DNA of 64,000 bases, taken from Burkholderiaceae bacterium (GTDB lineage: Bacteria; Pseudomonadota; Gammaproteobacteria; Burkholderiales; Burkholderiaceae_D). Position numbers and translations under genes: made by a program. Below are positions 37,601 to 60,183 of the stretch, piece after piece; the stretch's first letter is position 1, and each line of letters begins with the position of its first letter. Below the pieces are notes generated by a model that ran no database searches, was not told the origin of the DNA, and was given only the letters and a program-made list of their open reading frames with translations. The stretch spans positions 1,020-65,019 of the forward strand of contig DATBRC010000065.1 in the NCBI GenBank assembly GCA_036560485.1, written 5' to 3'.

Positions 37601-38932
37601 CAGCACGATATGCGCGTTGGTGCCGCCGATGCCCAGGGAACTGACACCTGCTCGGGCCGGATATTCACCCGGCTCTATCCGTTCCAATTTATCGATCACA
37701 TAGAACGGACTGTTTGCAATATCCAGCTTCGGATTCGGACTTTCGAAATGCAGACTTTCGGGAATGACCTTGTGCTTGAGCGACAACGCAGCCTTGACGA
37801 TGCTCGCTGCACCGGCAGCTACACCAAGATGGCCGATGTTGGTCTTGACCGAACCGATGCCGCAGAAATTTTTCTTGTCGGTTTCCAGACGGAATGCACG
37901 TGTCAGTGCAGTGAACTCGATCGGGTCACCCAATTCAGTTGCCGTACCATGTGCTTCGATGAAACGGATGCTGTCCGGCTCAACGCCAGCGACAGCCTGC
38001 GCCTCGGCAATGATGTTGGTCTGACCGACTATGCTTGGTGCGGTGTAACCGATTTTTTCCGAACCATCGTTATTGACGGCCGAACCTTTGATCACTGCGT
38101 AGATCGTATCGTTGTCAGCCAGCGCATCATCCAGACGTTTGAGCAAGACAAAGCAGGTGCCTGCACCGCCTACTGTGCCTTTTCCTTTTGCGTCGAACGC
38201 GCGGCAGTATCCATCGGGCGAGCTGTAGCCGCCTTGATGGTAGACATGGCCGGTGCAATTCGGCGTGGCGAGATGCGATCCGCCCGCAAGCGCCATTTTC
38301 GATTCGCCGTTCAACAGGCTTTGGCATGCAAGATGTATGCAAACCAGTGAAGTCGAACAGGCAGTGCCCAGTGCAACGCTAGGACCGTTCAGATTCAGCT
38401 TGTATGAGATGCGCGATGCAAACATGTCCTTGTCGACGCTGATTTGCGTATCCAGCGCATCGCCTCCCGCAGTCGCCTCATCACCCTTGAGCAAATTGAA
38501 AATGAAATACGTGCTCATGTTCACACCGGCAAATACACCGACGCTGCCATTGACTGACTCCGGTGTATAACCGGCATGTTCCAGCGTTTGCCATGCGACT
38601 TCCAATGCAAAGCGATGTTGCGGATCGAGATTGGCCGCTTCGCGCGGGTTCATCTCGAAGAAGTGCGCATCGAACTTGTCCTGATCCGGAATGAATCCAC
38701 CTGCCGGAACAAAATGAGGATCGGCAAGTGCAGCCGGTGCTACGCCCATCTTTGCCAATTCATCCAATGAGAAGCGGGTGATGCAATCTCGCGAGCTGAC
38801 AAGATTGGTCCAGAACTCGTCGACACTATCCGCCATCGGAAAGCGTCCCGCCATGCCGATGATGGCGATATCATTATTCACGTCGTCGTAGTCGTCGTGT
38901 TCTTCGCTTGCGTAATCTTCTTTGGTTGACAT
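31619..38932 (-). CDS. Hybrid PKS/NRPS: KS-AT-KR-PCP-E(like)-C, 2437 aa
   Basis: KS Cys in GTACSTSLV (Cys192, 38357-38359). AT GHSLGE (Ser638, 37019-37021). KR Rossmann ITGGLGGVG. Carrier FFELGGESLL (Ser1480, 34493-34495). HHLVMDAIS (33938-33943). Terminal SNHQIILDGW (32522-32527). Confidence 0.95.
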   Translation of the reverse strand: MSTKEDYASEEHDDYDDVNNDIAIIGMAGRFPMADSVDEFWTNLVSSRDCITRFSLDELAKMGVAPAALADPHFVPAGGFIPDQDKFDAHFFEMNPREAANLDPQHRFALEVAWQTLEHAGYTPESVNGSVGVFAGVNMSTYFIFNLLKGDEATAGGDALDTQISVDKDMFASRISYKLNLNGPSVALGTACSTSLVCIHLACQSLLNGESKMALAGGSHLATPNCTGHVYHQGGYSSPDGYCRAFDAKGKGTVGGAGTCFVLLKRLDDALADNDTIYAVIKGSAVNNDGSEKIGYTAPSIVGQTNIIAEAQAVAGVEPDSIRFIEAHGTATELGDPIEFTALTRAFRLETDKKNFCGIGSVKTNIGHLGVAAGAASIVKAALSLKHKVIPESLHFESPNPKLDIANSPFYVIDKLERIEPGEYPARAGVSSLGIGGTNAHIVLEEAPEAESSESRSWQLLLLSAKTPSALDRMAENLSAYMAKTSDESIADVAYTLQVGRKGFGFRRAFVVPAEKLSRIAPNIAPTKGFAGKRPEKQKKIVFMFPGGGTQYVNMARDLYEQEPYFKQTLDTCAALFKRKMDLDVIDLIYPDDAHTEPHSVILQKPKNFFAALFAVEYSLAKLWMSWGVKPDAMIGHSLGEYTAACIAGIFTLEQAVDLICFRGALFEKIEKGSMFSVTLPAEQVKTMLIDGVSIATINDPGRCVVAGRHTPMLEFGKLLDAKQIEYQKLLIDTAGHSPMIDPIMQEFGQFLSKVKFGKSSIPFISNMSGGWAEQSEISTADYWKNHLRRTVLFSDGVAMLLKDDNTIFLEMGPGNALSSFVRAQLPEKSEAVLLNTLRHIKEEKDDQSHLLETMGKLWIAGIDIDWKAFYADEKRKRIGLPGYPFDRKRYWVENRKDVAHAGAKLPIADWLWQPGWRLEERKPAQAAADDQGTVLALLDDRRYGEGVIVQLRTKGTRVVCVTQGAKFSEIDQDNFEIAAGNSNDYQLLLKRLIDLNATPKTIFHGWSLSSATDQDQLRTNLHLSFVYLAKALEANNSDMVNIVGITNQREAILDADQVDCSQALITGPANVIPYEHPNIRFVTLDVNAATTKPEDFIRFVLNELQILTAQNGASVVHTSIALRNNLRFVKDYIPLVTEDNAGQHVDIKQNGIYVITGGLGGVGMVHAQALAAYKTRLVLLQRSAFPAEEKWNALLADANENALLKEQIKGIKALQAQGATVTVVQADVTDAAQLADAVEQIRKNVGAINGLIHCAGYGEFVTVKETSKDIIDAVLAPKVAGTDNLLQVLKNEKLDFVLLCSSMSVATTGYGLVGYVSACAYLDAIAHAHRDDPATRYVSINWDVWNTPQQAVKAQNDSVLRQKQQDNKTAILPMEGIDVIYRALSSGKPQAVISTTDFQKLLRKNRKMSDVLLADFDTNESDTTAGQDNLSLYERPSLSTEYVAPSTDEEKLLASIWQETLGISKIGVNDNFFELGGESLLGVKIVVKAKKMGLFLETKQMFATPTIGEIVKNLKKSNAVIVDQSLVMGTSPCSPIQQQFLNTSWSNKDHWNVGALLNVTQTISEPALKMVVLCLLEQHDVLRSHFVRNEQGAWQQTYTSANSDQHVAWVDLTSTTGGAFSEQVQQHCQRLQSEMHIENGPLFKLAYFKAADSAHNKLALLFHHLVMDAISLGIVIEDLQTLLAASATDRKTDMAKLLPAKTTSYKDFSTGLPTRVASLQADLLYWQNVAGEVAKIPCEMSIDIARGSNLEGDIASLSASLDADSTQRLSQQAAKHTGLKINELLLAVLAKTISDWQQQPNVIIDMVHHGRPDFDTMDFSRTVGWFGTGSPIPLKLSASPLTSQLASLKSQIQSVPQQGLSLAWLKTLHDDLTVRKMLSQIPAAAISLNYIGQINQLIAGGMTTDAQDAIRTLRDPSNQRLYQHDVIAYSQNGQIALNWNFSKKQYHEATIQGLLNTLIENLQALSNADWNAIQSSGSRHKISDATLQACGISADQIEDCYGLTAFQSEIYRRYSDESKPLANVTQAVTVMEGPIDKRLLQAVWQALVARHKVLRTRFMHDVNGEPAQVVCKHADFALIELDYSHLDEAGQQQALMQLQVKDRLTRYDLSKAPALRLYWVMLSPQAGRFAIVMSNHQIILDGWTSSLLSKDLIMCLMSMVSGKDLPAMQNQADFGRYIDWLERQSLDDALLHWRKAFDGYRHVEPLQSLMSASSSITKAEDSYAESQLVIDDNLLNSVQETARASQTTSNAVFQAAWALSLAQLSGANDVVYGATVSGRSADFDGITEIIGQCTNSLPVRVSLASDMTVAQLLQVVHRANAQAQTHNLPSLKQIANAIGHTGNDNLYSSNFIFENIPRADSGGVELPIKTIAALWTDGWQFPLRVFIVPEEKTWVRFAFDKSRFAITDIEKLAQRYQKNLIELTKSIHAPVLQITV
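31622..32965 (-). other. Terminal condensation domain (DCL-like); last domain of the line
   Basis: IEDCYGLTAFQSEIY and SNHQIILDGWT. The protein ends right after this domain, with no A, T or TE. Confidence 0.7.
32978..34360 (-). other. Epimerisation-like domain lacking the EGHGRE glutamates
   Basis: SPIQQQFL, FHHLVMDAISLG, MVHHGRP (33494-33511) in place of EGHGRE, and SRTVGWFG. Confidence 0.65.
34388..34615 (-). other. NRPS-type carrier (PCP) domain serving the PKS module
   Basis: YVAPSTDEEKLLASIWQETLG...FFELGGESLLGVKIV. This is the PCP-style GGxS motif rather than the ACP-style LGxDS. Confidence 0.75.
34733..36235 (-). other. KR domain incl. structural subdomain (approx. aa 900-1400)
   Basis: GIYVITGGLGGVGMVHAQAL (35401-35480 region). 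Catalytic region SSMSVATTGYGLVGYVSACAYLDA. Confidence 0.65.
36383..37300 (-). other. AT domain (approx. aa 545-850) with a TAGH specificity motif
   Basis: FMFPGGGTQY, GHSLGEYTAA, and IDTAGHSPMI with TAGH at 36722-36733 (aa 734-737). Confidence 0.75.
37598..38875 (-). other. KS domain (approx. aa 20-445)
   Basis: DIAIIGMAGRFP..., GTACSTSLV, EAHGTATELGDP, GSVKTNIGHLGVAAG. Confidence 0.8.
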
Positions 38933-38964: not shown

Positions 38965-41900
38965 TTACCGCGACGTCTTGCGCTCACGCGAACGATTTCG
39001 ACGCTGCATTGCAGCGCGTCTTTCTTGTCCGGCATTACGCGCTGCATCTGCGGCTGGAGCGGGTGTTTGACCACCATGCTGCCCGAGGAATATTGCCAAC
39101 TTCTCAATAGTGGTGGAATTGAACAACTCGACCATGGGAAACTCGATATTCATTTGCTGCTGAATCTCGTGATGCAGTTTGACGATCAAGAGCGAATTGG
39201 CACCGACATCGAAGAAATTATCCTTGATGCCGATCGGCTCTGCCGCGCCGAATACGCTGGTGGCAATCGCCGTCAGCGTTTCTTCCAGCTCATCGCGTGG
39301 TGCAATTTTCTCTACTTTGGCTGAGCCGGACTGTGCAAAAGTTTTGCGTAAAGCTGCCAGATCAATTTCACCGCTTGCTGTTTTTGGCAAAGACTCAACC
39401 TGAATATATTGCACATGCAATGACAAACCAAATTCGTCGGTTAGCACTGCTTCAGCGGCAACCTCATTCGTGATGCCTGGTTCATTGGCCGCGAAATAAC
39501 ACACCAGCTGTCGATCCGACGGTTGAACGTCCGTCACCAGCTGTCGAATATTGGGTCTGGTATCGTCCAGGCCGATCAGTACATTGCGGCGGCCGTGATA
39601 CAACACCACCAGCATCGAGAACAATCCCTTGCTCGCCACAATCGGTGTAAAGCCGAGTGCTTTCGACAAACTCTCCGCTTGCTTGTACTGGCTGCCCATG
39701 CCGGTGTCATGCCAGAGACTCCAGCTGATGCACACGCTACGGACATTTTTGTTGTCGCGCACCGATTCGACAAAGGCTTCCTGATAACGATTGCCGATGT
39801 TGTACGCCGCCATGCCGCTGCCGCCGAAGAATCCATTGACCGACGAAAAATTTACAAACAAGGTATCGGTCCTGTGGTTGCAAATGTTATAGAGCACGCG
39901 CGTTCCGGATGTCTTGGCGCGCAGCACATCATGCAAGCTGTGTATCGTTTGTCCGGCCATCGCTTCTTCATGCGCCAGACCGGCAAGATGAAATACACCC
40001 GCCAATTTTTGTTTCCACTCTGCTTCCGCTTTGTCCACAGCAGATTCGACCGCCGCATGGTTGCAGATATCCGCATCGGCATATTGCACATTGCCCATGC
40101 CGGCGAGCTGATCCAGCATGTCCTTCTTGTCGGCCGGCAGTTTTTCCAACGGTGTCCTGCCGATCAACAATAATTTTGCGTTAAATTGTTTCAACAACAT
40201 CCTGGCGAGCTCGTAACCAATTCCGCCCAGCCCGCCCGAAATCAGATAACCGCCGCCGGAGACGAGCGGCATCTCGCGTTTTTCGCGAATGACCCGGCGC
40301 TCCTTGCGCAAGCGTACGACAAGCCGCTTGCCATCGCGGTAAGCGACTTCATCGATTGCATGATAAGTCACGATTTCGCGCTTCAACCATGCTGCATGGT
40401 CGGCGATATCATTGCCTTCAAAATCTACATGGTGACATTTGAGCCATGCAAATTCTTTTGGCAAAGTCTTCATCAGCGCCAGCGTAGCCGCCTTGTCGGG
40501 GCTGATGACATCGCTGCCATTCACGCATTGTGCTTTGCGTGCAGCCCAAATCCAGCGCATGGTCGGCGGCGTCTCCAATGCAGCAAATGCCTGCGCCAGA
40601 TACCATGCCGAATACAATCCGATCGCATCGGACAACGTGGCTTTAGTCAACAGCGCATCGGCAGTGCGTGCATTCGATTCATAATCCCACAGGTTCACGA
40701 CACGGCTGATCGTGATTGAACGTTGGGTCAGCGATGCTACCAACTGCACGTAATGTTCCTGTACGCCCGGATTGATTTGATAAGAATCGCCACGGTCTTG
40801 ATATGCCTGCCCCTGTGTAACTGTGATCACATGGCCCGACAAACCAAGTGCAGCCGCGCAACCTGCAAAGTCGGCAAACACAAGCGTCGCACCGACAGGA
40901 GATAACTCGACCACATTATTCAAACGCTTTTGCACCCATGTCTTGCTGAACGACCAATCAGGCAATGTGTTCTCATTGCGCTCCGCCAGATCGAGTGCGC
41001 GCAATGCATAATCGAATTCACCACGATTGAATGATTGCGCTAGTTTGATTAATTGAATCTTGCCGATTTCCGTCTTCGGCACCTGATCTTTTTCCACCGG
41101 AACAATAAAGGATGGATTGATGCCGATTTTTTCCACGACGGCTTGACGAATCAGTTTGATCAGCCCCAACAGAGGTTCGCCTTTTTGCGCGGTGTTGAAG
41201 AAAATCGCCAGCTGATCGCTGTTGCTGCCATTGCGGCGCACTGCGCATGCGCCGGTATAGGACACCACGACGCCTGGCACGGTTTCCACCACTTCGGCAA
41301 TCTCATGACCGTAGAAATTCACGCCATTGATAATGATGACGTCTTTCTCGCGCCCGGTGATTGTCAATTCGCCATTCTGGATGAATGCCAGATCACCTGT
41401 CTTGAACCAGCCATCCTGTGTGAAAACATCCTTGTTGACGTTCTCACCGCCCAGATAGCCCTTGGTCACTGTCACACCGGATACTTGCAAACGGCCGGAC
41501 TGCCCTTCCATCATCACCTGATCATGTTCATCGACGATACGCATGTTGACACCCGGGATCGGGCGTCCTACCGAAACGAATACCGTGTCATCGCTGCCGT
41601 AAGTCAACTGCAGACGTTTTGCATAGGTCACACCGGATGAAATTTCAGACATGCCGTAAACAGGTTTCACCGAATCTTCAGCAAGCTTGAATTGTTGCAG
41701 CAGCTCGATGAACGCCTGCGTAGTTTTCGGCACCACGGCTTCTGCACCGTTCAGCATGAAGTGCAGGCAACTTAAATCAAGCGTCAACTTCTTCAGTTCC
41801 TCCTGACGCTCGACAATCAAAGCGAAAGCAAAATTGGGCGCCCAAGTGATATTGACCCTATGCTGATCGATCAATCGCAACCAGCGCAACGGATCGGCCA

Positions 41901-44900
41901 GGATGTAATCCGTATCGGCTTGCACTTGTGTCGCGCCAAGATACGCATCGCGGATATGGAAGTAGATGATGCCACCGACGTGATCCAGCGCCATCCAGTT
42001 CAACGACACCATGTCGGAATGGAAGCCGTTCATTTGTGCCGAACCGAGTGTGCGGCCAATCAGGTTGGCATGGGTCAGCTGCACACCCTTCGGCAAACCG
42101 GTGCTACCCGATGTCAGCATGATCAGCGCCACATCATCGGATGCGCCTTGATGGAAATCATGCGCTGGTTCAGCTTCATACAACGATGTAATCTCATGCA
42201 CATCGAAAGCGTCGATCTTCTCCAGCGTACCGATATGGCGCACGCCTTCAACAATATTTTCACCGGCGAGGACGATCGCCTTGTCCATCATGTTCCATGC
42301 ATGCGCAACTTTGACAGTTTGCGCATTGCTGGTTCGGTAGTTCTTTGCTGCTGCGATTGGAACCGGAATGAAACCGCCTAACTCACAAGCCCAGAACGAG
42401 ACGATGAAATCCTCGTTCCGATCGAATTGAAAAATAACCTTGCTGCCAACCGTCAATCCCGTTGCGCGCAAACCGCCCAACACACATTGCGCTTTATGCA
42501 GCAGCTTTACATACGACATGCTGGTTGTCGAGTTATCTGCATGGTAAAACTCGATGACCTTGTCGCCATGTACTTGTGCCGTATTGATGATCATGTCGGC
42601 CAAACTATTTGGACGTCTGATCACCTCAATGATCGGCTCGCTGATGATGAGCGCAGGAGACTTCGATATCGATTCGTTGTTGATTTTTCTGGTCTTGCTA
42701 ACAATCGATGCAGCATTGCCGCTTGTACCGCGCGCCTCTATCGGCAACAAGTCGAGCAAATGCGATACCGGCTGCTGTTCGCTGATCATTTGCGATATGA
42801 CCACTGCCTCATTGATCTTGCCAATTTGACTTACCTTGCCTGTCCACAATTGTCTTGTCACCGGATTGTGCACTGCATACTTGTACAACTGCCTTGCATT
42901 GACTTCGCCATGTCTGGTCAACGGAATCGCGCCAACCTTGACACAAGCAAACACGTTGATATCTGTGAATCCAGATGACTGCAGATACTGTGTGAAATCC
43001 TCTGCATCCGGCTCTTCATCTTTGCAAACCAGATAGACAACGATTTGATTACCTAACTCGGCATGTTCCCGAATCGCGACATGGCAATCCTGCACATCAG
43101 GTCTCGTCAGCAACTGCTGTTCGACGACACGTGGATATACGAGTTGATTATTGATCAATGCAACATCGTCGACAGACGACAACAAGACCAGTCCATTGGC
43201 AGTCTGGCGTGCGGTGAAACCGCTGGCCAACAGCTTATACAAACGGCCGTTAATGTTTACTTCAGCGATGCGGCCATTCAAAAGGGTGGACGTATCCGTC
43301 TGGCCTTTTATCTCGAAATACAATTTGCCAACAACACCATGCGGCACGGCATTACCTGTGGCATCAAGAAGATAATAATTCGCGATATCGCTTTCCGACA
43401 CAATTGCTTTGCCATATAGCGCACGCAAAATCGGATAGGCATCCAGCGTAATTGAAGCAGGCGTAATCGCGTTATCGGGTGCAAGCGATAGTCCGGACAC
43501 CTTATGCTGCGGACTGGCAATAATGGCATTCAGCAAATGAATGAATGCCGATACGAAGCCCTGAATCGTTTCGCGTTTAAATAGATCGGTGTTGTATTCA
43601 AAACTGCCGGACAAGCCATCGGGCGTAGTCATGAACTCCAACAGCAAATCGAACTTGGCAGTCTTGTTTTCCAGTGCGATGTTGTCGATCGTTATACCGG
43701 GCAACGTGAAGCTGTTGGCCGCTGCATTCTGCTGGAATGAAAATGACACCTGGAACAACGGCGACCGCGATGGATCGCGCTCCGGCAGCACCAAGTCCAC
43801 CACCTTTTCAAACGGTATGTCCTGGTTCGAATAAGCTTCCAGCGTAGTTTTCTTGACCTGCTGCAGCAATGCCGCAAAAGTCGGATCGCCATCCAGATCG
43901 GAGCGTAATGTCAGCGTGTTGGCGAAGAAACCGATCAACGGTTCAATTTCGGCACGCACTCGATTGGCGATCGGTGTGCCGATACTGATATCGGTGTCAC
44001 CCGAATATTTGCCAAGCATCACATTGAATGCGCTCAACAAGGTCATGAACAAGGTAGCGCCTTGATGATGGCTCAACTCGTCCAGTGCAGCGACCATCGC
44101 TTTGTCGATGACAAATGAGGCACGGTCACCGTTGTAAGTCTGATTGCGTGGCCGCTCAAAATCCAGCGGCAATGAAAGCGTCGTCAGATCTTTAAGCTTC
44201 TTGCTCCAATAAACACTTTGCTGTGTCAGCACCGGCCCTTGCAGGTATTCGATTTGCGATACCGCATAATCGGCATACTGCACCGGCAAGTCCTTCAGCT
44301 TCGCTGGAGTCTTGCTCACATTAGCTGAATACAATGCCGTGATTTCGTTGATCAATATGTTAATTGACCAGCCGTCGGCAATAATGTGATGCATGTTGAT
44401 GAATAATCGATATTCATCATCGGCAAACTTGCACAGCGAGACGCGTAACAAGGCATCAGACTCAAGATTGAAAGCCGTCTTTAGCTGTGCATCGATATAA
44501 GCAGAAAATTCTGCTTCCTTCTCTTCAACAGTTCCACCCTCAAGCTCGATTACATCCATAGCCCAATCGATCGATGAGTGAATCTTCTGGAAGCCCTGCC
44601 CTTGATCCGAGATGAAATTGGTGCGCAGTACTTCATGCCGTCCAATCAACGTGACGAAAGCATGGTTAAGCGCATCGACATCCAGGTCGCCGACGATCTT
44701 CATCACGCTCGGCATGTGATAGAAATTGCTGTTCTCTTCGTAACGGTCAAGGAACCACAAGCGCTGCTGTGCGAAGGACAGCGGCACCTTGTCGCGCTGA
44801 TCGAGAATACGAATCGGATTTTCAACGTAGCTCGCGTTGGCGTGTTCGATCACAACCGCAAGGCGCTCAATGGTTGAATTTTCGAAGAATTGCTGCAACG

Positions 44901-47900
44901 ATAATTCGACACTGAATTCCGACCGAACGCGCGCAACGATCTTCGTGGCCAGCAATGAGTGGCCGCCCAGTTCAAAGAAATCGTGGTGCGTGCCGATATC
45001 CTGGATATTGAGGATGCCGGACCAGATATCAGCCAGTCGCTTCTCAACCGGCGATTTCGGCGCGACATACAAATCGTCTTCACCTTCGTTGAGCGGATAA
45101 TTCTGCAGCGCGAGACGATCGATCTTGCGATTCGGCGTCAGCGGCATTGCATCCAATTCCACAAACAATGACGGCACCATATAGTTCGGCAACTTCTCGC
45201 TGACCACTTTGCGCAATTCTGCCGAAGTAAGATGATGCGCATGATCTAATCGCGCATAGAAACACACCAGCCGTGCCAAGCCCTGCTCGTCATCGCGACT
45301 GTTGACCACGACTTCCACAATGCCCGGCACAGTGCGCAATACATCTTCGATTTCAGTCAACTCGACACGGAATCCGCGGATGCTGACCTGGAAATCTTCG
45401 CGGCCGATGAATTCAATTTCGCCATTCGGCAAATAACGCCCAAGGTCGCCGGTCTTGTACATGCGTGACGTTCTGTCATCGCTGAACGGATTCGGAATAA
45501 AGCTCTTTGCCGTTGCTACCGGATCATCGACATAGCAAGTCGCCAGACCAACGCCGGCTGTATGAATTTCGGCAATCACACCGATCGGCACCTGCTTCAG
45601 GTTTTCATCCAGCAAGTACATTTGCGTATTGGGGAATGCCTTGCCGATGGTGAGTTTTTCGCCGACTTGCCTGTACTCATACAAAGTCGAACCGATCGAC
45701 ACTTCCGAATTGCCGTACAGGTTAAGGAAGCGCACACCAAGCGCCGTCCACTTCGCCACTACCGCATCGTTGCAGGGCTCGGCGGAGGAAACCACCACAC
45801 GCAGACTCTTGGGCATGCGATCCACCGGGACGGTGGACAGCAGCGACACCGGCCAGGTCACGTGGGTAATCTGGTTTTCTTCCATGAATTCGTACAAGGG
45901 TTCGTCCGGCAGGTTTTCCTTGGACGTAACGCTATAGATGGTGCCGCCAGGCACCCACGCCATGTACGTGCCCCAGAACGCGATGGAGAAACTCAGCGAA
46001 GCGAACTGCAGCACGCGGCTGTCGGGTGTATGCAATCCGGCCCACTGCTGCGAATTCGCCATGTTGCGGAAGGCGCGATGGCCAACCAGGATACCCTTTG
46101 GCTTGCCGGTGGTGCCGGAGGTGAACAGGATATAAGCCGAATGGCCGGCGCCAATGCGCGGCGGATTGGAGATGGGCTGCGACTGGATCGCGTCCCATTC
46201 TGTATCGAGGGCGACGATCTCGGCGCCAGTATCGGCGAACAGCGGCTTCAAGTGTTCCAGCGTCAAAATGATTTTCGGCTTGGCGACGTCGAGCATGCGC
46301 TCGATGCGGTCCTTGGGATAATTCAGGTCGATGGGCACATAAGTACCGCCGGATTTGGCGACCGCCAGCCCGCTGATGCCGGCCCAAGTCGAACGCTCGA
46401 CCGAAACGCCTACCCTTGCCTCGGGGCCGACGCCGCGGCTTTGCAGGAAATGTGCGAGCCGGTTGGCGCGCGCGTTCAATTCGGCAAAGGTAAATCGGTC
46501 ATCGCCGCAGACATATGCCAGTTTGTTCGGCATGCGTTGCACGGTGCGCTCGAACAAGTGGTGCATACATTCGTCTTGCGGATAATCGATATCCGTTGCA
46601 TTCCAGCGTCGTACCTGCTCCATTTCCTCTTGCGTTACCACCGACAGTTTTTCGATGGCGATCGTGGAATCCGACATCGCGGCTTCCAGAATGGTCTGGT
46701 AATGCTTGGCAATGCGCGCGACCGTTTGCTCACTGAAAATGTCGGTAGCAAACTCGATCACGCCTTTCAGGCCATCGCCTGTTTCTGCCAATGAGAAATT
46801 CAAATCAAGCTTGGCGCTTTGTGTCGGCAGGTTGATCAGTTCGCTGCGCAATCCGGCAAACGAACTCGTCTGTGCCATTTGCTGATTATGCAAACGGAAC
46901 ATCACCTGGAAAATCGGCGGCACACCAAGGCTGCGTTCAGGCTGTACGGCTTCCACCACGCCGTCGAACGGCACGCTGCTATTGCTGAATGCTTCCAACG
47001 CTTCATTACCTACTGCGGCAACCAGCTGCTGGAAATTATCTTTCGCATTGACGCGGCAACGAATCACCAATGTATTGGCGAAGCAACCGATCAATGGCTC
47101 CAATTCCTTTTGCGGACGATTGGCAACGGCTGTACCAACCGGAATATCGTTGGTGCGTCCATAACGCGACAATAAAATCGCGAGGCCTGACAACAGCAAG
47201 TTATACAAGGTCGTATTGTGTTGCCGCGCATACTGGTTCAGGCGCGCTGTCAAACTGAACGGCAAACTGATCGGCAATTCCTTGCCGCGATAACTCTGAA
47301 TCGGCGGACGCGGATAGTCGAGCGGCAGATTCAGCAACGGCGCCAAGCCATCCAGTTTCTTCTTCCAGAAATCGGTCTGCTTGTTGAAGGTATCGCCGAC
47401 GATATTTTTCTGCTGCCATTGCGAATAATCGCCGTATTGCAATTCGAGTTGCGGCAATGGGCTCGGTTTACCGGCACTAAAGCTGCTGTAGAGCGCAATC
47501 AACTCGTTCATCAGAATATTGAGCGACCATCCATCTGCTACAACGTGGTGCACCACCAACGTCACGACATGATTGTCGTCGGCGATACTCAATAGACGAA
47601 TGCGTATCGGCAATTCGTTTTCAAGGTCGAATATATAAGTGAAATCGGCGCGCACCTGTTCTTCGACATCTTCCTCGGCGACCTGCACGATCTGCAGCTT
47701 GAACTCGCTTGCAGGAACGATTGCCTGTAACGGCTCGCCATCCCTGGACGGGAATAAGGTACGCAACGATTCATGGCGCTCAATCAACGCATGGAAAGTT
47801 TTCTGCAATGCCGTAACATTCAACTCGCCATGCATACGCATTGCAAATGGAATGTTGTAGGTATAGCTGCCGCCCTCAAGCTGATGCAGGAACCAGTATG

Positions 47901-50900
47901 GCTTTTGATCGAGCGATAAAGGAATCGAACCAGTTTCTTCCCGCTTGCTGATCGCAGGTAAAGCCGTTCCAGGTGTGTCTTCCTGTCCAGCTAAAAAGAT
48001 CGCCAGCGACTCGACAGTCGTATGGGTAAACAAATCCTTGATCGTCAGCGGCAAGCCCAGTCCATCCTTGACGCGCGATACCACTTGCACCGCAAGCAGC
48101 GAATGCCCGCCGATCTCGAAGAAGTTGCGATTGACGCTGATATTTTTCTGGCCGAGCACTTCAGTCCAGATTGCTGCGATCTTTTCTTCCAGCGGATTTC
48201 TCGGTGCAACGTATGCGATGCTTTGATCGTCGTCCAGCGTAGGCTTGGGCAAACCGAGACGATCAACCTTGCGGTTAGGCGTCAACGGCATTGCATCCAG
48301 TTTCACAAACAGCGATGGCACCATGTAACTCGGCAGCTTGCGGCTGACCAATGCGCGCAACTGTCCGGCATCGAGACCCTGTGCGTCCGGTTTTTCGACA
48401 TAGAAGCACACCAGACGTCCAACCTTGTTTGCATCGAGCTGGCTGACTACAACGACTTCGGCGATGCCGGGCGCGGCACGCAAAACGTTTTCAATCTCGA
48501 CCAGCTCTACACGGAAACCGCGGATGCTGACCTGGAAATCTTCTCGACCTATGAATTCAATTTCACCATTCGGCAAATAACGTCCCAAATCGCCGGTCTT
48601 GTACAAGCGCTCCGGCTTCCCCTTTGCGAATGGATTGGGGATAAAGCTATTGGCTGTCGCTTCCGGATTATCCCAATAACAGGTTGCCAAACCGGCCCCT
48701 GCCGTATGAATTTCTGCGATGACACCAATCGGCACTTGCCGCAAATGTCTATCGAGCAGATACATGCGTGTATTCGGGAAAGCGACGCCTATCGTCAGCT
48801 TCTGGCCGACTTTGTGATACTCATACAAAGTGGAGCCGAGCGACACTTCTGAATTGCCATACATGTTCAGGAAGCGCACGCCGCGCGCAGTCCAGCGTGC
48901 GACGACGGCATCGTTACACGGCTCAGCCGAAGAAATGATCGTTTGCAAACTGTTCGGCATGCGCTCAACCGGCAAGGTTGATAACAGCGAGACCGGCCAT
49001 GTCGCGTGCGTGACTTTTTCACGCTCCAGCAATCCATAAAGTGATTCGCCGGGCAACGCTTCGTCTTGTGTCACAGCGATCAACGTCCCGCCAGGCACCC
49101 ACGCCATGAAGCTGTCCCACATCGAGATCGAAAAGCTCAGCGATGCAAACTGCAACACACGATTATTCGGCGAGTGCAGTTTTGCCCAGCGATGCGATTC
49201 CGGCATGTTGCGGAAACTGCGATGGCTGATCAGGATTGCTTTCGGACGTCCGGTCGTGCCGGAAGTGAACAGGATATAAGCCGAATGATCCGCGCCGATA
49301 TGCGGCAGGTTCTCCGTCGGTTTGGAGGCAACCGTTTCCTGGATCTGCTCGACGTGAATGACTTGCGCAATCCTGTCGTCGAACAGTTCGGAAATTTCAT
49401 CAGTCGTCAAAATGATCTTCGGCTTGACCACATCGAGCATGATGTCGATCCGCTCTCTCGGATATTTTGGATCGAGAGGAACATAGGTGCCGCCAGCCTT
49501 GAATACTGCCAGCATGCTGACGCCAGCCCATGACGTACGGCCGACGCTGACGCCGACCCGTACTTCCGGTCCGACACCAATCGATTGCAGATAATGCGCG
49601 AGCTGGTTTGCCTTGGCGTTCAATTCTGCATAGGTAAAACGATCATTGCCGCACACATAGGCCAGTTTGGCCGGCATCTTTGCACAGGTTTGTTCGAACA
49701 GATGGTAGACACATTCATCCGTTGGATACGGAACGACTGTGTTATTCCAGTTTTCAACCAGATCGAATTCTTCTTTGGATAAAAGATTCAGGCTTTCAAC
49801 TTCTGCATCGGGATGTACCATCGCCGATTCAAGCAGCAACTGGAAATGGCGCGTGATGCGGCGTACGGTTTTTTCCGAGAACAGGTCGGTCGCATATTCG
49901 AGAATGCCTTCGATGCCGGCATCGGTCTCAGCCAGTGAGAAATTCAAGTCGAGCTTGGCGCTTTCGCTCTCGATATTAATCAGTTCAGCTTCAAGATCGG
50001 CGAATTGAATACCTTGGCCAGTCTTGTGATTATGCAGGCGGAACATCACCTGGAATAACGGTGGGACGCCCAGGCTGCGTTCAGGCTGCACTGCGTCCAC
50101 CACGACATCCAGCGGCACTTCCGCATGTTCATAAGCATCAAACACAACGCCATTGACGCGCTTGACCAGATCGATAAAGCTGCGGGTTTGATCAACCTTG
50201 TTACGCAATACCAGTGTATTGGCGAAGCAGCCGATCAATGGTTCCAGATTGGTCTGCGAGCGATTGGCAATTGCCGTGCCGACGACGATGTCTTCACTAC
50301 GGCTGTAACGTGACAGCAGCACATTCAAACCAGCAAGCAACGTATTGAAAAGTGTTGTATTGTTCTTGCGCGAAAATGCATTCAGCGCTTGCGTCAATTC
50401 AAACGGCAGCACAAAACCAACTTCCCTGCCGCGATAACTTTGCACCGGCGGTCGAGGATAATCGGTTGGCAGATCGATCATCGGCGGCACGCCCTTGAGC
50501 TTGTCGCGCCAGTAGCCGACCTGCTTCTCGTAATAAGCACCCACCAGATTCTGCTTTTGCCAAACAGCATAGTCGCCGTATTGCACCTGCAGTGGCGCCA
50601 ACGGATTTTCCTTTTGCGCGACGTGGGCGTTATACAGCTGCGCCAATTCTCCCATCAGGATTCCCAACGACCAGCCGTCGGCCATCGTGTGATGCAACAA
50701 TACCGTCAATACATAATCGTCATCGTATAGCTTGTGCAGCACTGCACGGATCGGAATCTCTTTTTTCAGATCGAACACATGGCGCGCATCCAGTTCAATC
50801 TGTTTGTCGAGGATTTCCTTGTAACGATTATCTTTTTTACTGTCGATAATCAGCTTGAATTCAGGCGAAGGTAAAACCTGCTGCAACGGCGCGCCGTTTT

Positions 50901-53900
50901 CCACAACAAAGATCGTACGCAGACTTTCATGACGCTGTATCAGCGCGGCAAAACTCTGCTCCAATGCAGGTATATCGACCTTGCCGGTCAATCGCATTGC
51001 TGTCGGAATATTGTAGGTGGCGGTGCCGCCTTCCATCTCATACAGGAACCAATACGATTGCTGCTCCAGCGACAACGGCACGATATTGCTGTCTGCACGC
51101 GGTTCGACCTGCGGCAATAGCGCATCCTTGCTGGAAGCTTCGGCAATCCGTTTGGCCAATGCCGCAATGTTGGTATAGACAAAAAGGTCGGCCACTTTCA
51201 ACTGCACGCCAAAGCCTTCCTTGATGCGCGAAATCACCTGGATCGCCAGTAGTGAATGTCCGCCCAGGTCAAAAAAGTTATTGTTGATCCCAACTTTTTC
51301 CAGCTTAAGCAATTCACCCCAGATAGCCGCAAGCCCGACTTCAATCTGATTGCCCGGTGCGACATATTCTGTCTTGACCAGGCTGGCAATATCCGGTTCC
51401 GGCAAACGCTTTCGATCGACCTTGCCATTCGGCGTCATCGGGAATTGTTGGACCGGGACAAATATCGATGGGATCATGTAGTTCGGCATCGACTGTGCTA
51501 AATGACGACGCAGCGCCTCGGCATTGAATGCATCATGTTCAATGACCAGATAGGCAACCAGGCGTTGGTTGTTGTCGCGATCCTTATGCAACACGACGAT
51601 GCTGTCGATGACACCCGGCTGTTTCGATAATGCCGTTTCAATCTCGCCAAGTTCGATACGGAAACCACGCAGCTTGACTTGGTTATCGATACGGCCGATG
51701 AACTCAAGGTTGCCATCGTTCAGCCAGCGCGTCAGGTCGCCGGTTGCATACAGCTTGCCGGAACCGAACGGATTGTCGACAAATTTTTCCTTGTTCAATT
51801 CATCGCGGCCGAGATAGCCCCGCCCTACGCCACAGCCGCCCACATACAGTTGTCCTGCCACACCGACAGGCGTCGGCTGCATCAATTCATCCAGCACATA
51901 CAACTGCACACCGCGCATCGGCTTGCCGATATGAACCACATCGGATGCCGGCGTCAGTCGTCCAATACTCGAACAGACAGTCGCTTCGGACGGACCGTAT
52001 GCATTGTAGAAATTTCTGTCGTGCGACCATTCCTTCATCAAGCCAAGCGGGCATTGCTCGCCGGCGACGACCAGGTGCGCTACAGATTGCCACATGCTTC
52101 TATCCAGGACAGATAGCAACGCCGGCGGCAGAGTTGCATGCGTAATCCCTTTACGAGCAACGTAATCAGAAAGATCGGTACCGGACTGTGCAATCTCTTT
52201 TGACATGATGTGCAAACACGCACCTGCACACAAGGCCATGAAGATTTCCGATGTCGCTGCGTCGAATGCAAACGATGCGAACTGGATGACATGGCTATTG
52301 CCATCAACATGGAAAAATTCTTTTTGCGCTTGCGCCAGATTCGATAAACCTTTGTGCATCAGCAGCGATGCCTTCGGGTTGCCGGTTGAACCGGATGTGT
52401 AGATCACATAAGCGAGCGAATCTGGTGTCAGACCCAGCTTGGCGACCGGAATATCTTCTGATGAAAGTGCATCGAACAACACATTGTTATCAATGAAGAC
52501 GAGTCGTTGCCCATTGATTGGCAGCACGTGTGACAAGGATGTCTGCGTCATCACCAGCTTGACGCCGGAATCCTCCAGCAAATAACGTAAGCGATCGGAT
52601 GGATAAGTCGGATCAAAAGCAACATAGGCGCCACCCGCTTTCAGGATACCCAACATCGCAACGACCAGTTCCAGCGAACGTTCTGCACACAGGCCGATCA
52701 ACGTGTCCGGCTTGACGCCATTCGCAATCAAATAATGCGCAACCAGATTGGCGCGGCGATTGAGCTCCTCATACGTCATTGTCTGTTCATTGAACTGCAG
52801 CGCAATGGCGTTCGGCGTCTTCGCAACCTGCTCTTCAAAAAGCAGATGGCTGCAAACCGGTTCGAACGCATCGTTTGCATAGGCGTTGCAATTGCTCAGC
52901 AGCGTGTGCCTGTCGCTCTCGGTGACTAGCGGCAAACGTTTGACAGCGATCTGCGGTGATTGTGTGACTGCATCCAACAGTATTGCGAAGCTGTTCGCCA
53001 AGCGATGGATCGTTGCTTCGTCAAACAGATCCTTTGCGTATTCCCAATTCAGTTTCAAACCTTGGTCAGATTCGACGATATTCAAGGTCAGATCAAATTT
53101 GGTAGCAAGTGCTGTTTCCCTGATTTCAGCAGCTTCCAGTCCAGCCAATTTCAGGCGGTTCTCGCCGCCGCTTTGGAATACCAGCATGACCTGGAACAGC
53201 GGATTAACACTTTGACTGCGTTCGACTTGCATTTCATTGACCAGCATTTCGAACGGCAGATCCTGCTGCTCATATGCATCCAGCAAAGTCGATTTGCTTT
53301 GAGAAAGCAAGGCAGTAAAGTCCAAATCTTCCGAAAAATCGCTACGTACCACAAGCGTATTGACGAACAGGCCGACCAACGGCTCCAGCTCCACCAGATC
53401 GCGATTGGCAACCGGCGTGCCGAGCACGATATCGGTCTCGCCGCTGTAGCGATGCAGCAAACCGGCGAACGCCGCATGCAATACCATGAATAACGTGGCA
53501 TCGTTTTCTTTGGCCACGTGATGGAGACTGGCAGACGTATTGGCTGAAATGATTTGTGCAACCACACCGCCTTCATGACTCGATTGCGCCTGACGTGCAT
53601 GATCGAGCGGCAGGTTATGCACGCTTGGCAGATTTGCCAATTGGCTGCGCCAATAGGACACCAGTGAATTCAGTTTGTGGCCTGCAAGCGTCTTGCGTTG
53701 CCAAGCCGAATAGTCGGCATACTGATATCGCAGGTCCGGCAACGATGCGCTGCGGTTTTCGACAAAGGCACTGTACAACTCTGCCAATTCTTTCACCATG
53801 ACACCGGTAGACCAGCCATCGCTCGCGATGTGATGCATGGTCACCAGCAACGTGTGTCGCTTGTCAGACAGCTTGATCAAGGTGGCGCGCAACATCAGAT

Positions 53901-56900
53901 CACGCGCCAGGTCGAATGGCTGCCACGCTTCTTCTTCAGTCAATGCGTGAAGCGCATTGAATTGCGCAAGCTGCTCGCGATCCGACAGATCGATTTTCTT
54001 CAGCTCAAATTCGACCGGATCGCGAATGATTTGGTGTGGCAACCCATCCTTTACATCATAGACGGTGCGCAGAATCTCATGACGGCCGATGAACGCATCA
54101 AATGCCTTCTCCAGTGCGGCCGCATTCAACTCGCCGGACAATTCGATCGCCGCCGGCATGTTGTACTGTGCCGCAATGGTATCGATCTCATTGACGAGCC
54201 AAAGACGCTGCTGCGCATACGACAGTGGCAATGTCTCTTCACGCGAAACACGTTTGATCGGATGACTCTCAAGTCCGGAGGCCTGTTCAATCAATGCGGC
54301 AAGTGCATGCAACTCTTGCGCTTCGAACGCTCGCTTGATCGGAAATTCGATTTTCCAGCGGTCACGTACTTTTGCGACCATGCGCATCGCCAACAGAGAA
54401 TGGCCGCCAAGATCGAAGAAATTATGGTTGATGCCGATTCGGTCAACATTCAGCAATTCACACCAGATAGCGGCAAGGCCTTCCTCGACACCGTTGCGCG
54501 GAGCGACATACTCGGTACTTATCAGACTGCTGATATAAGGTTTCGGCAGACGCTTCTTGTCCACCTTGCCGTTGACACTGAGCGGTAATGTATCGATTGA
54601 GATGAAGGCTGATGGAATCATGTAGCTTGGCATCGATTCCGCCAAATGACTGCGCAATACATCAGCATCGATCGTACCTTCTTCCGGAACGATATACGCA
54701 ACCAGCCGCTTATCACCGGGTACATCTTCACGCGCCATCACAACGGCATCGCGCACTGCCGGCAATGCGGCCAGTGCAGATTCAATCTCGCCAAGCTCGA
54801 TACGGAAGCCGCGAATTTTCACCTGATCGTCAATGCGGCCCAGGTATTCGATATTGCCATCCGGCAGATAGCGCGCCAGGTCGCCGGATCGATACATCCT
54901 TGCACCGGACTCTGCACTAAAAGGATTCGGAATAAATTTTTCTGCAGTCAGGTCGGGACGGTTCAGGTAGCCACGCGCCAGGCCGACACCGGCGATATGC
55001 AATTCACCGGCAACACCAACCGGAGTCGGGTTACCGTATGCATCGAGAATATGGATCTGGATATTGGCAATCGGTTTGCCGATCGGGACGCAATGCAGAT
55101 CGGTATTTTCTCGGCATTGCCAGAACGTGACATCGACCGATGCTTCGGTCGGGCCATACAGATTATGCAGTTCAACGTGACGAAGCTGTGCAAAGAAGCG
55201 CCGTTGCAATTCAATCGGCAATGCTTGTCCGCTGCAAATAACCTGTCTCAAGCTGCCGCATAATTTCGTCTCTGCCGTGCTCAAGAACACTTCCAACATC
55301 GGCGGCACAAAGTGCAGCGTCGTGATCGCTTGCGATTGAATCAGTTCCGCCAAATACTGTGCATCCTGATGGCCGCCCGGTTTGGCGACAACCAGAGTAG
55401 AACCATATAAAAGCGGCCAGAAAAATTCCCACACCGAGACATCGAAACTGAACGGGGTTTTTTGCAAGACACGATCGGCGGCAGTCAGCCGATACGCTTG
55501 TTGCATCCATTGCAGACGATTGACAATCCCGGCATGCTCAACGCCAACGCCCTTAGGACGTCCAGTCGATCCGGAAGTAAAAATGACATAAGCGAGATTG
55601 CGCGCGACAGTATGGTTTTCAGGATTGCTGGTGGCGTACGCTTCGACTTCATGCCACTGCGTATCAAGACAGAAGGTTTTGGTATCGCTTGCCGGCAAAT
55701 TTTCCAATAAATGCTGCTGCGTCAACAGTACCGGCGGCTTGCAATCCGACAGCATGAATGCCAGACGATCTTTCGGATAATCGGGATCAAAAGGCACATA
55801 GGCGCCGCCCGCTTTTAAAATGCCATACAGACCGATCACCATTTCAATCGATCGCTCAACGCAAATCCCTACTTGTACATCAGGACCGACTCCGATGCTG
55901 CGCAAATAATGCGCCAGCTGATTTGCCTTGGTGTTCAATTCGGCATAGGTTAGCGCGGTATCTTCAAATACCAATGCCGTGTGATTTGGCGTACTTGCAA
56001 CCTGTGCTTCAAACAATTGATGCAGCGTCAGATTCTTGGGATAGTCGACTGCCGTATCGTTGAATACATCAAGGAGCTGATGTCTTTCATTTGCATCAAG
56101 CAAAGACAAATTGCTCAAGCACTCACTTGGCGCACTCACAATTTCCGCCAGCAAGTGTTTGAAATGCGATGACAGCCGGTGTATTGTTGCCTCGTTAAAC
56201 AAATCGGTCTTGTACTCCAGATGACCTGTGAGCCCCGCTTCACCTTCGGCCAATTCCAATGTGATATCGAACTTTGACGTCTTGGATGCAATCGTATTTT
56301 TCCGTACTGTGACACCGGGTAATGACAAGCTGTTTTGGTCTATGTCCTGCAGCACAAACATCACCTGGAACAGCGGCGATGTCGTCAAATCGCGCTCTTT
56401 CTGCACCAGGTCAACCACCTTTTCAAACGGCAGATCCTGATGTGCATAGGCATCGACCGTTAACGCTCTGATGTCCTGCAATAAATCGCTGAACATCGGA
56501 TCGCCGCCATAGTTGGCACGCATAGCCAGCGTGTTAACGAAAAAGCCCATCAGGTTTTTCGTTTCCATCATCGTGCGGTTTGCGATCGGAGTCCCTACAC
56601 AAATATCGTCCTGACCGCTGTACTTGTGCAGCAACACGCCAAAAGCAGTCAACAGGGTCATATACAGTGTGACGCCGTGTTCCTTGCTCAAGGCTTTCAA
56701 TTGATCCGTCAGCTCTGCATCCAGTTGCAGCGGAATTGAATTGCCTGAATATGTCAGCGTTGCCGGCCTGATTTTGTCGACCGGAAGCTCCAGCGGTGTC
56801 ACACCATCCAACTGCGATTTCCAATATTCTTCCTGCCGTTGCAGCACGTCTCCGGTCAAATAATCACGTTGCCAGGCCGCATAATCAGGATATTGAATCG

Positions 56901-59487: not shown

Positions 59488-59973
59488 ATTGAAGCCCTCA
59501 CCTATTCATCCAAATAGCATGCAACCAAGCGAGTCTCCTGTAATACGCATTAATGCCGACTACGGATCAGGCATGCTGTTAAGCTGATCCAGGCAATAAA
59601 TTGTATTTTTATAATTTTATGCTGCAGTGCAGTATAAAGAGTTTTATTACAACAAACTATATGGTGAGACTACTATGGCAATCGAATTAACAAATAATTA
59701 ACTAAAATTCACAATTGACAGTTACTTTGAATAAAAATACCATCTTGCCGCAAAGAAAAAATCAAAACCAGCCCAAAATGCATGGCGTTGTAAAAAGTGA
59801 ATAAGCACCTTCCTTTTTTGATATGCAGCAAAGTTTCATCGTCAGACTTACACAATAATGTAGAGGCATTTGTTATCATCCTTTATCAGTATTACAAGAA
59901 GATAACAACAACATAACCATAAGAAAATTTGCCGCTTTGCGTGAGCAAATGGTTAAAACAGGAGACAAGGACA
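59488..59973. promoter_or_regulatory. AT-rich divergent promoter region of the NRPS operon and the mbtH-TEII-PPTase operon
   Basis: 486 bp with no ORF. Leader hairpin ggatcag(59564-59570)/ctgatcc(59584-59590). I recognise no convincing operator. Confidence 0.4.
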
Positions 59974-60183
59974 ATGAGTCACCGAGAAGACAGTGATGAA
60001 ACCATCTATAAGGTTGTCATCAGTCACGATGAACAATACTCAATATGGCCCGCACACAAAACCCCTGCACGTGGCTGGAGTGAGACTCAAACGCAAGGCA
60101 CCAAGGGAGAATGTCTGGCATTCATCAAGAGTACCTGGACCGACATGCGTCCAAAAAGCTTGCGGGACAAGATGGTTAATTGA
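59974..60183 (+). CDS. MbtH-like protein
   Basis: GGAGACAAGG precedes the ATG at 59974. Sequence ...YKVVISHDEQYSIWPAHKTPARGW...LAFIKSTWTDMRP carries the MbtH Trp signature. Confidence 0.9.
   Translation: MSHREDSDETIYKVVISHDEQYSIWPAHKTPARGWSETQTQGTKGECLAFIKSTWTDMRPKSLRDKMVN

Follow-up and report, generated by a model that had tools for sequence, protein, structure and literature searches.

In the adenylation (A) domains of nonribosomal peptide synthetases (NRPSs), the α-amino group of the substrate is held by the carboxylate of Asp235 together with backbone carbonyls around Gly324 and residue 330 (PMC11253843). Here we describe two A domains that depart from this arrangement, found in a 64,000-nucleotide stretch of a Burkholderiaceae bacterium genome (assembly GCA_036560485.1, contig DATBRC010000065.1, positions 1,020 to 65,019 of the forward strand), referred to throughout as the window. 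An uninterrupted open reading frame of 6840 codons (38965..59487, minus strand) encodes an NRPS whose modules 3 and 4 span 44809-51102, and the A domains of these modules, A3 and A4, have Ser at position 235.

Several characterised domains lack Asp235 as well. The keto-acid domain StsA carries Ile235 and Met325; its M415P mutant is dead, and the P483M/A mutants of LgrA gain keto-acid activity (PMC11253843). Known keto-acid domains all belong to a separate clade of keto-acid ligases (KAL) (PMC13643306), and aryl-acid A domains of the DhbE/EntE type carry Asn235, an FGMAEG-type A5 core and a stand-alone or initiation position (PMC11253843). In fungi, A1 of enniatin synthetase (EnSyn) activates a free D-α-hydroxy acid directly, without a ketoreductase (KR), and among A domains specific for hydroxy acids only TycApPLA, an α-hydroxy-acid domain evolved in the Hilvert laboratory, has a solved structure (PMC11253843). 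The sequence of TycApPLA in the Protein Data Bank (PDB; 7ywk) reads SFAASVSE and YGLTETSCS, equivalent to D235A, W239S, P325L, I330C and C331S, and 7ywj is its L313P revertant. StsA and TycApPLA together show residue 325 to be as important as residue 235. To our knowledge TycApPLA has no natural counterpart.

A3 (48163..49725) and A4 (45019..46581) were delimited on the minus strand with Pfam AMP-binding and AMP-binding_C, core motifs and alignments, and are 67% identical to one another. The first-pass annotation of the window had read LSFSISMWD and LSFSIAFWG in the two domains and taken the second Ser of each to replace Asp235; both motifs are present, with the Ser codons at 49129-49131 (aa 3453) in A3 and 45985-45987 (aa 4501) in A4. 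Profile, pairwise and structure-anchored alignments all set this Ser at position 235. The GrsA PheA reference fragment is 100% identical to residues 184-452 of 1amu_A, which fixes its Asp as residue 235, and BLASTP of A3 and A4 against it ran without gaps from core motif A3 to residue 239, with Ser opposite D235, Asn opposite P325, and Asp at 235 in neither domain. In addition, phmmer against solved structures aligned ...lsfSismw of A3 with ...fsfDgsal of LgrA. Mapping to the columns of a hidden Markov model (HMM) returned the same ten-residue codes that had been extracted by hand, SIWTISMLGK and SIWTVSLIGK, and it gave canonical codes for sibling A domains (DVWHISLVDK, DASTVAAVCK, DAWQFGLINK and DVQFIAHVVK, of Ser-, Tyr-, Gln- and Pro-type). 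YGNSEVS and PNRK(V/I)DR were also found in both domains, Asn325 being encoded at 48853-48855 in A3 and 45709-45711 in A4, and Arg516 plus Lys517 at 48268-48273 in A3. One detail needed amending: FDxS had been given as the motif of modules 1 and 2, but module 2 reads FAFDAATSE (FDAA).

Apart from these residues, A3 and A4 look like members of the canonical clade. Core motifs A1-A10 are present in both, including TSGxTGxPK, E327, YxTGD, GRxD and K517, the AlphaFold2 (AF2) model of A3 has a confidence (pLDDT) of 91.3 with 1amu (PheA) as its best Foldseek match, and a neighbour-joining (NJ) tree sets both among canonical A domains. They share with the GrsA PheA/TycA type (1amu) the fold, the ten core motifs, Lys517 and three residues of the Phe code (W239, T278 and I299), but differ in having Ser for Asp235, Ile for Ala236, Asn for Pro325, Ser for Lys434 and Arg for Gly516, along with ~25 further clade-specific substitutions at otherwise conserved positions. 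The Asp or Glu at 235 of α-amino-acid A domains is missing from both, as is the NxYGPTE core with Pro325 (here YGNSE), and there is no Asp or Glu anywhere in either code, position 236 being Ile.

A set of 501 adenylating domains was assembled to survey positions 235 and 325. Asp235 occurs in 340 of about 355 canonical domains, the exceptions being Glu, and 286 of those 340 (84%) have Pro325 and none has Asn325. All apparently functional domains in the set without Asp or Glu at 235 are also without Pro325; residue 325 is Met in the 108 KAL domains, Ala or Ser in β-alanine-type domains, Ser in a sister clade considered below, and Asn in the clade formed by A3, A4 and their orthologues (the Ser235 clade), to which Asn325 is restricted. 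Judged by their residues, A3 and A4 carry the complete two-position (235 and 325) signature predicted for a domain that no longer binds an α-ammonium group. TycApPLA resembles them in being a canonical A domain altered at positions 235 and 325, but it was made in the laboratory, has Ala and Leu in place of Ser and Asn, and keeps a large aromatic pocket. We consider it fairly probable that A3 and A4 take an acid other than an α-amino acid. The first-pass annotation had also judged the substrate probably not to be a standard amino acid, and the loss of Pro325, the absence of an acidic code residue, strong purifying selection and a partial ester-type signature in the condensation (C) domains all support that view, as do the sister clade and the experimental precedents.

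Ser235 is rare among related domains. When A3 was searched against 5.8 billion proteins and the best 120 matches were inspected, only its 4 orthologues had Ser235, and with P0005, an Ala235 domain, identity to A3 dropped abruptly from 66% to 46%. The other 115 matches comprised 113 with Asp and two with Glu (P0045, P0047), mostly with Phe-/Tyr-type codes, and the nearest database relatives of A3 and A4 carry the codes DAWTIAAVCK or DASTIAAVCK. Database and literature searches found no close homologue with an assigned substrate, and a literature search for the six observed codes, Ser235/D235S and Paucimonas NRPS products returned nothing relevant, the only related item being a speculative remark on Ser235 in a Pseudanabaena module. 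Other codes that begin with Ser were seen in four domains (P0146, P0216, P0370 and P0416), namely SDLVAGLSDK, which is β-Ala-like with Asp236, SSGSLGGVCK, SSRDLAMGIK and the KAL-type SVLWCAASGK; Ser235 thus arises sporadically in other adenylating lineages.

To place A3 and A4 in a wider context, one genome per species was scanned, which gave seven loci besides the window: Paucimonas lemoignei DSM 7445 (L006), a Paucimonas metagenome-assembled genome (MAG), two Burkholderiales/β-proteobacterial MAGs, Oxalobacteraceae UBA8502 and two γ-proteobacterial Agarilytica MAGs. An eighth, L001, was added from a metagenomic contig, and the window itself has a match in a JGI metagenome contig of 624 kb. 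All 15 Ser235 domains of the nine loci (window, L001, L003-L009) carry SIWT[IV]S[ML][LI]GK, YGNSE, GREDFQVS[IV]RG and PNRK[VI]DR, and they are mutually 65-96% identical. Core motifs A3, A7 and A8, Glu327 and Lys517 are kept throughout the clade, pairwise ratios of nonsynonymous to synonymous substitution (dN/dS) are 0.06-0.2 with dS above 1 (saturated), and the Ser235 codon varies synonymously between TCG, TCC and TCA. Five near-invariant positions are changed clade-wide (A236I, L279W, G302A, K434S and G516R). Ser235 modules stand two in tandem in the β-proteobacterial loci and singly in the Agarilytica loci, always directly upstream of a module of the form C-remnant-KAL-KR-T, where T is the carrier domain and the remnant is that of an A domain. 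In the NJ tree the Agarilytica Ser235 domain groups with the A4 orthologues, and the A3 orthologues form a separate branch. The Agarilytica version of the cluster (L008/L009) also has a Pro-type module preceding its single Ser235 module and an extra P450.

Because the code and the catalytic motifs are conserved, dN/dS is low, the Ser codon varies synonymously and the AF2 model is confident, A3 and A4 are predicted to be functional and not decaying. A decaying or inactive reading was dropped on the first three of these grounds. The same data bear on the proposal that the two domains are catalytically dead scaffolds, with the carrier domains T3 and T4 loaded in trans or skipped. Changes at near-invariant core positions, Tyr to Phe in core motif A3, Gly to Ala in A6, Lys to Ser in A8 and Gly to Arg in A10, speak for it, but the ATP-binding and catalytic residues are invariant in the 15 domains, dN/dS is low, the specificity code itself is conserved, and the cluster holds no stand-alone A domain; we regard a dead scaffold as extremely unlikely.

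The Ala235 domains P0005, P0121 and P0122 form a monophyletic sister group to the Ser235 clade in the NJ tree. They have Ser325, an identical code (AVGSITMMGK), YGSSE and PNRKLDR, yet are only 45-47% identical to one another. W66, F153, W279, V281, A302, D307, R516 and PNRKxDR are shared with the Ser235 clade, the substitutions common to both being L279W, P281V, G302A, G516R and Trp for Glu near core motif A2, whereas A236I, P325N and K434S are found in the Ser235 clade only. The sister clade also differs in consisting of single (C)-A-T proteins and in its larger pocket (G239, S278). Its genes always lie in a conserved cassette unrelated to the cluster of the window, where the (C)-A-T gene is accompanied by genes for a radical SAM protein, a 339-aa protein, an AurF-like oxygenase, an aminotransferase and a B12-radical SAM enzyme, and this context (AurF-like oxygenase, aminotransferase, radical SAM) pointed to no substrate class. 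Members of the sister clade were seen at 8171-10723 of L002, 7770-10790 of L010 and 4734-7775 of L012, and in L011 and L013; the AurF-like oxygenase is fused to the aminotransferase in L012/L013, and the L010 cassette adjoins AfsA, HAD and aldo-keto-reductase genes.

We compared A3 and A4 with several families that do without Asp235. Asp235 and Pro325 are likewise missing from the KAL/Ak domains (StsA, CesA/B, CrpD-M2 and Dol15D-M2), which work in depsipeptide assembly and of which one stands in module 5 of this NRPS. Those domains, however, make up an ANL clade of their own, in which residue 235 is hydrophobic, residue 325 is Met, the code follows VGxW..SGK, core motif A8 is acyl-CoA-ligase-like and a KR always follows; A3 and A4 show none of these traits. 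KAL membership was ruled out by the code and motifs against the 108 KAL domains, by the canonical-clade position and by the absence of a KR from modules 3 and 4. Aryl-acid membership was ruled out by Ser235, YGNSE and the C-A-T elongation-module setting. β-Alanine-type domains (VDWVISLADK) share W239, I299, S301, L322 and a YG(A/S)SE-type A5 core without Pro325, but have Asp at 236 and 331, where A3 and A4 have Ile236 and Gly331, and are phylogenetically distant. Ile236, present in 15/15 domains, excludes the β-Ala solution V235-D236, and the β-Ala-type domains P0183 and P0185 fall elsewhere in the tree, so that membership was ruled out too. EnSyn A1, likened here by description, has a small neutral residue at 235 (Gly) and no KR, but is fungal and belongs to an initiation-type module; in A3 and A4 residue 235 is also small and neutral and their modules have no KR, with a C-domain signature that is only suggestive. 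On sequence grounds A3 and A4 are best described as canonical A-domain variants outside the characterised KAL, aryl-acid and β-Ala families, in a newly defined clade.

The binding pocket of A3 and A4 (I236, W239, T278, I/V299, S301, M/L322, L/I330, G331) is aliphatic, and four of its positions hold bulkier residues than the Phe code does. Summed side-chain volumes of 1156 and 1133 cubic angstroms lie between the Leu/Ala and the Ser/Thr codes, and the nearest canonical codes are those of Ser, Thr, Phe and β-Ala. This points to a substrate that would have a small or medium side chain. Both domains sit in elongation modules, so C3 and C4 require a nucleophile on the monomer, and since the pocket offers no counter-charge that nucleophile should be neutral, either a hydroxyl or an aniline nitrogen. 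By analogy, the precedents at 235 and 325 favour an α-substituent. No precursor-supply enzyme was found in the cluster of the window or in the orthologous clusters, and with no such gene in the conserved set (NRPS, polyketide synthase (PKS), crotonyl-CoA carboxylase/reductase (CCR), MbtH-like protein, type II thioesterase (TEII) and phosphopantetheinyl transferase (PPTase)), the substrate should be a common metabolite.

Aniline-type loading is known from albicidin, cystobactamid and fungal anthranilate modules, and the substrate of A3 and A4 could in principle be anthranilate, p-aminobenzoate (pABA) or a similar aromatic amino acid whose aniline nitrogen is uncharged. Tandem modules without Asp235 or supply genes would suit this, anthranilate and pABA are primary metabolites, and the sister clade adjoins an AurF-like oxygenase and a GATase. 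The pocket, however, is small and aliphatic with no polar residue at its base for a ring amine, the code is unlike those for pABA (AVKYVANDAK), and carrier-bound aliphatic amino acids are also substrates of AurF-like enzymes, leaving an aminobenzoate substrate very improbable.

Our leading reading, which we hold tentatively and put a little short of an even chance, is that A3 and A4 are canonical-clade A domains that directly load a short-chain hydroxy acid. The replacement of Asp235 by Ser and of Pro325 by Asn would rebuild both elements that hold the protonated α-amino group, the side chain at 235 and the Gly324-Pro325 backbone of the A5 core, and the domains would then select a carboxylic acid with a neutral nucleophile in place of the ammonium. 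The likeliest substrate would be a small or medium aliphatic hydroxy acid straight from the metabolite pool; it would be taken directly because neither module has a KR. Direct loading is the simplest reading because modules 3 and 4 are without a KR and keto-acid domains form the separate KAL clade, used in module 5. The hydroxy acid would be adenylated and loaded on T3 (47938..48162, approximate ends; IGGHSL, Ser aa 3796) or T4 (44809..45018, approximate ends; LGGHSL), and its hydroxyl would be acylated by C3 or C4 to give ester bonds. Module 5 would make an α-hydroxy acid from a keto acid with its KAL and KR, and we infer acyl-Ser-Tyr-(hydroxy acid)-(hydroxy acid)-(α-hydroxy acid) as the product of the line, which would be extended by a probably ethylmalonyl-specific PKS module and released by terminal C domains.

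Since ester formation would fall to C3 and C4, we looked at these domains more closely. C3 (49738..51087; Pfam Condensation, local HMM envelope aa 2801-3250), whose acceptor is the A3 substrate, carries HHTMADGWS, GCFANT and an N-terminal LSLEQQSYWFL, and C4 (46594..47931; 53% identical to C3), for which donor and acceptor are both Ser235-module substrates, carries HHVVADGWS, GCFANT and LSLDQKPYWFL. Throughout these loci, C domains preceding Asp235 domains have HHxxSDG and FVNT, and those preceding Ser235 domains have HHxxADG, GCF[A/V]NT and the unusual N-terminal LSL[E/D]Q[Q/K]xYWFL; C5, which precedes the KAL, also has FANT. From 150 KAL-containing proteins of a 1.84-billion-protein representative library, we compared 25 independent C domains before KAL, ester-forming by architecture, with 169 before Asp235 domains, at two positions that had been picked after viewing C5 of the NRPS. 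Ala at FxNT was found in 8/25 against 14/169 (p = 0.002), Ala, Ser or Thr there in 14/25 against 30/169 (p = 1e-4), and Ala at HHxxADG in 8/25 against 25/169 (p = 0.045). Both Ala features, which C3 and C4 combine, occurred together in 2/25 and 0/169, respectively (p = 0.016). We know of no accepted sequence signature of ester-forming C domains, and the residues of C3 and C4 are only suggestive of going with ester formation. At their N-termini the usual C1 motif S(F/Y)AQQR(L/M)W has become SL(E/D)Q(Q/K)xYW, with the Arg lost and Tyr for Leu/Met; this pairing is in 0/89 other C domains of a first control set, and a second control set has five Ala-Tyr cases at the same columns.

A number of points weigh against direct loading of a hydroxy acid. 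Besides the after-the-fact choice of the two positions, FANT before Ser235 domains is confined to the β-proteobacterial C domains, the Agarilytica one having FVNT, and a whole-domain naive-Bayes classifier of ester and amide formation is weak, with an area under the curve of 0.72. Overall similarity places C3 and C4 with ordinary LCL-type domains (PDB matches such as TycC6 2jgp), and typing against solved structures found C3 and C2 no different. The overall nearest Asp235 relatives of A3 and A4 are Phe/Tyr-type domains, which makes the argument from pocket size a soft one, and a hydroxy-acid dehydrogenase is absent from the cluster. Bacteria normally use a KAL plus a KR for hydroxy acids, as module 5 of the same protein does, and as far as we know there is no precedent for a bacterial NRPS elongation module that activates free hydroxy acids directly. 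Lastly, McyG, with Val at 235, is reported to activate L-Phe (PMC11253843), and an amino-acid substrate is therefore still compatible with the loss of Asp235.

McyG is likewise a precedent for an ordinary small hydrophobic α-amino acid as the substrate of A3 and A4, its amino group held by backbone carbonyls and Ser235/Asn325. The overall LCL amide-forming look of C3 and C4 would agree with such a substrate, as would an MbtH partner and the lack of special precursor genes in the cluster. The near-universal acidic residue at 235 in the canonical domains surveyed argues the other way, as do the five clade-wide changes at near-invariant positions listed above, and the joint loss of Pro325 fits the hydroxy- and keto-acid precedents instead; on balance we think an ordinary amino acid unlikely.

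The architecture of the NRPS is FAAL-ACP-(C-A-T)x4-C-Ax-KAL-KR-T by Pfam and motif scans (Ax, A-domain remnant; all on the minus strand). Its first part, FAAL-ACP-C1-A1-T1-C2-A2-T2 (51094..59487), has a Ser-type code in A1 (DVWHISLVDK) and a Tyr-type code in A2 (DASTVAAVCK) by Pfam, motif scan and code mapping. Pfam and motif scans of the NRPS found no KR in modules 3 and 4. Module 5 (39058..44793) consists of C5 (HHIIADGWS, GFFANT), the A-domain remnant (aa 5370-5542), which keeps only motifs like A6-A10, a KAL-type keto-acid ligase (VGFWLGVSGK, YGMSE), a KR and T5. It is a reduced form, in a β-proteobacterium, of the 'five-domain' keto-acid module described lately for dolastatin 15 and CrpD-M2 (PMC13643306). 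A3 and A4 might themselves load α-keto acids, whose thioesters would undergo reduction or transamination in trans before condensation, for example through the module 5 KR or an enzyme encoded elsewhere. StsA and other KAL domains show joint loss of Asp235 and Pro325 as their keto-acid signature, the following module contains a KR, and the Ala235 sister clade is always beside an aminotransferase. Yet known keto-acid domains form the separate KAL clade (PMC13643306), with its hydrophobic 235, Met325 and VGxW..SGK, whereas A3 and A4 belong to the canonical clade, have the polar residues Ser and Asn at these positions and sit in a protein that already has a dedicated KAL-KR unit. The conserved cluster holds no stand-alone KR or aminotransferase. 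Keto-acid loading therefore strikes us as improbable.

The synthetase genes belong to a cluster spanning roughly 29.4-61.8 kb of the window. Downstream of the NRPS, a PKS-NRPS protein of the form KS-AT-KR-ACP-C-C (31619..38932, minus; domain scan) takes the chain from T5, and next to it lies the CCR gene (30268..31596, minus; TIGR01751, 457 bits against a cut-off of 378.55), which keeps its place next to the synthetase genes in every lineage checked (orthologous contexts L017, L018). The acyltransferase (AT) domain at ~36341-37309 (minus) reads GHSLG...TAGH, which we take to be an ethylmalonyl-type motif. Because of this motif and the conserved CCR beside the PKS, the extender is probably ethylmalonyl-CoA. 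The PKS protein ends in two condensation-like domains (31628-34345, minus) with altered motifs, Ala having replaced Gly in HHLVMDA and Asn the first His in NHQIILDG, and its orthologue in L018 is 1996 aa long, compared with 2437 aa in the window. Genes for an MbtH-like protein (59929..60183, plus; PF03621, E = 9e-17), a type II thioesterase (60256-61005, plus) and an Sfp-type PPTase (60986-61771, plus), the last two from domain scans, are upstream of the NRPS on the opposite strand. The module 1 A domain (54463-56037, minus) has a Ser-type code in the window (DVWHISLVDK) and in L001 (DVWHISLVDK or DVWHMSLVDK), and the orthologous module of Paucimonas lemoignei and other β-proteobacterial loci (L003-L007) has the Gln-type DAWQFGLINK, which amounts to an exchange of A domains among closely related versions of one cluster. 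Flagellar and chemotaxis genes occupy 1-23 kb of the window, the flank being a flhDC-motAB-che region, and an IS200/Y1-transposase-like gene (62610-63338, minus; domain scan) lies just outside the cluster, which may be an insertion with the IS200-like transposase on one flank and the flagellar region on the other.

The cluster carriers include Paucimonas lemoignei, a poly(3-hydroxybutyrate) (PHB) degrader, and Agarilytica MAGs 'PHB_gam1', named for PHB enrichments, a pattern that may reflect horizontal transfer and possibly an ecological link to PHB use. A neighbouring α/β hydrolase was considered as a PHA depolymerase and dropped, at 58 bits against a model cut-off of 300. A3 and A4 could load a β-hydroxy acid, for instance (R)-3-hydroxybutyrate as a 'de-amino threonine' or 'hydroxy beta-alanine', tying the product to PHB/C4 metabolism. 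Their codes resemble those of Thr (W239, I299, M322) and β-Ala (W239, I299, S301, L322), the YGxSE core is common to β-Ala-type domains, a CCR, which consumes crotonyl-CoA, is conserved, and the PHB specialist and both PHB-enrichment MAGs carry the cluster. However, likeness over eight residues is weak evidence, β-Ala-type domains are phylogenetically distant, and the ecological link is drawn from two lineages, the other carriers being groundwater and soil MAGs. We consider a β-hydroxy acid improbable, and 3-hydroxybutyrate is kept as a speculative candidate on the code likeness, the YGxSE core, the conserved CCR and the PHB-degrading hosts.

Prediction of NRPS monomers relies on the Asp235-anchored code, and domains outside it are blind spots in genome mining. 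The small clade defined here is marked by Ser or Ala at 235, Asn or Ser at 325 and Arg at 516. Selection on it is strong, and it is altered at the two positions that also had to change when hydroxy-acid acceptance was obtained by directed evolution. If A3 and A4 do load hydroxy acids directly, they would provide a natural KR-free part for building ester bonds into peptides and a new rule for predictors. They might even be the first natural bacterial canonical-clade A domains to load free short-chain hydroxy acids in elongation modules, giving three consecutive ester bonds in a lipopeptide-polyketide together with the KAL-KR module and, in the boldest version, using (R)-3-hydroxybutyrate from PHB turnover, although we think this less likely than not. 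Should that version be true, the (R)-3-hydroxybutyrate monomer would explain why the cluster is found in Paucimonas lemoignei and the PHB-enrichment Agarilytica, beside a CCR. The cluster is an orphan, and since one of its carriers, Paucimonas lemoignei DSM 7445, is a cultured type strain, these predictions are directly testable.

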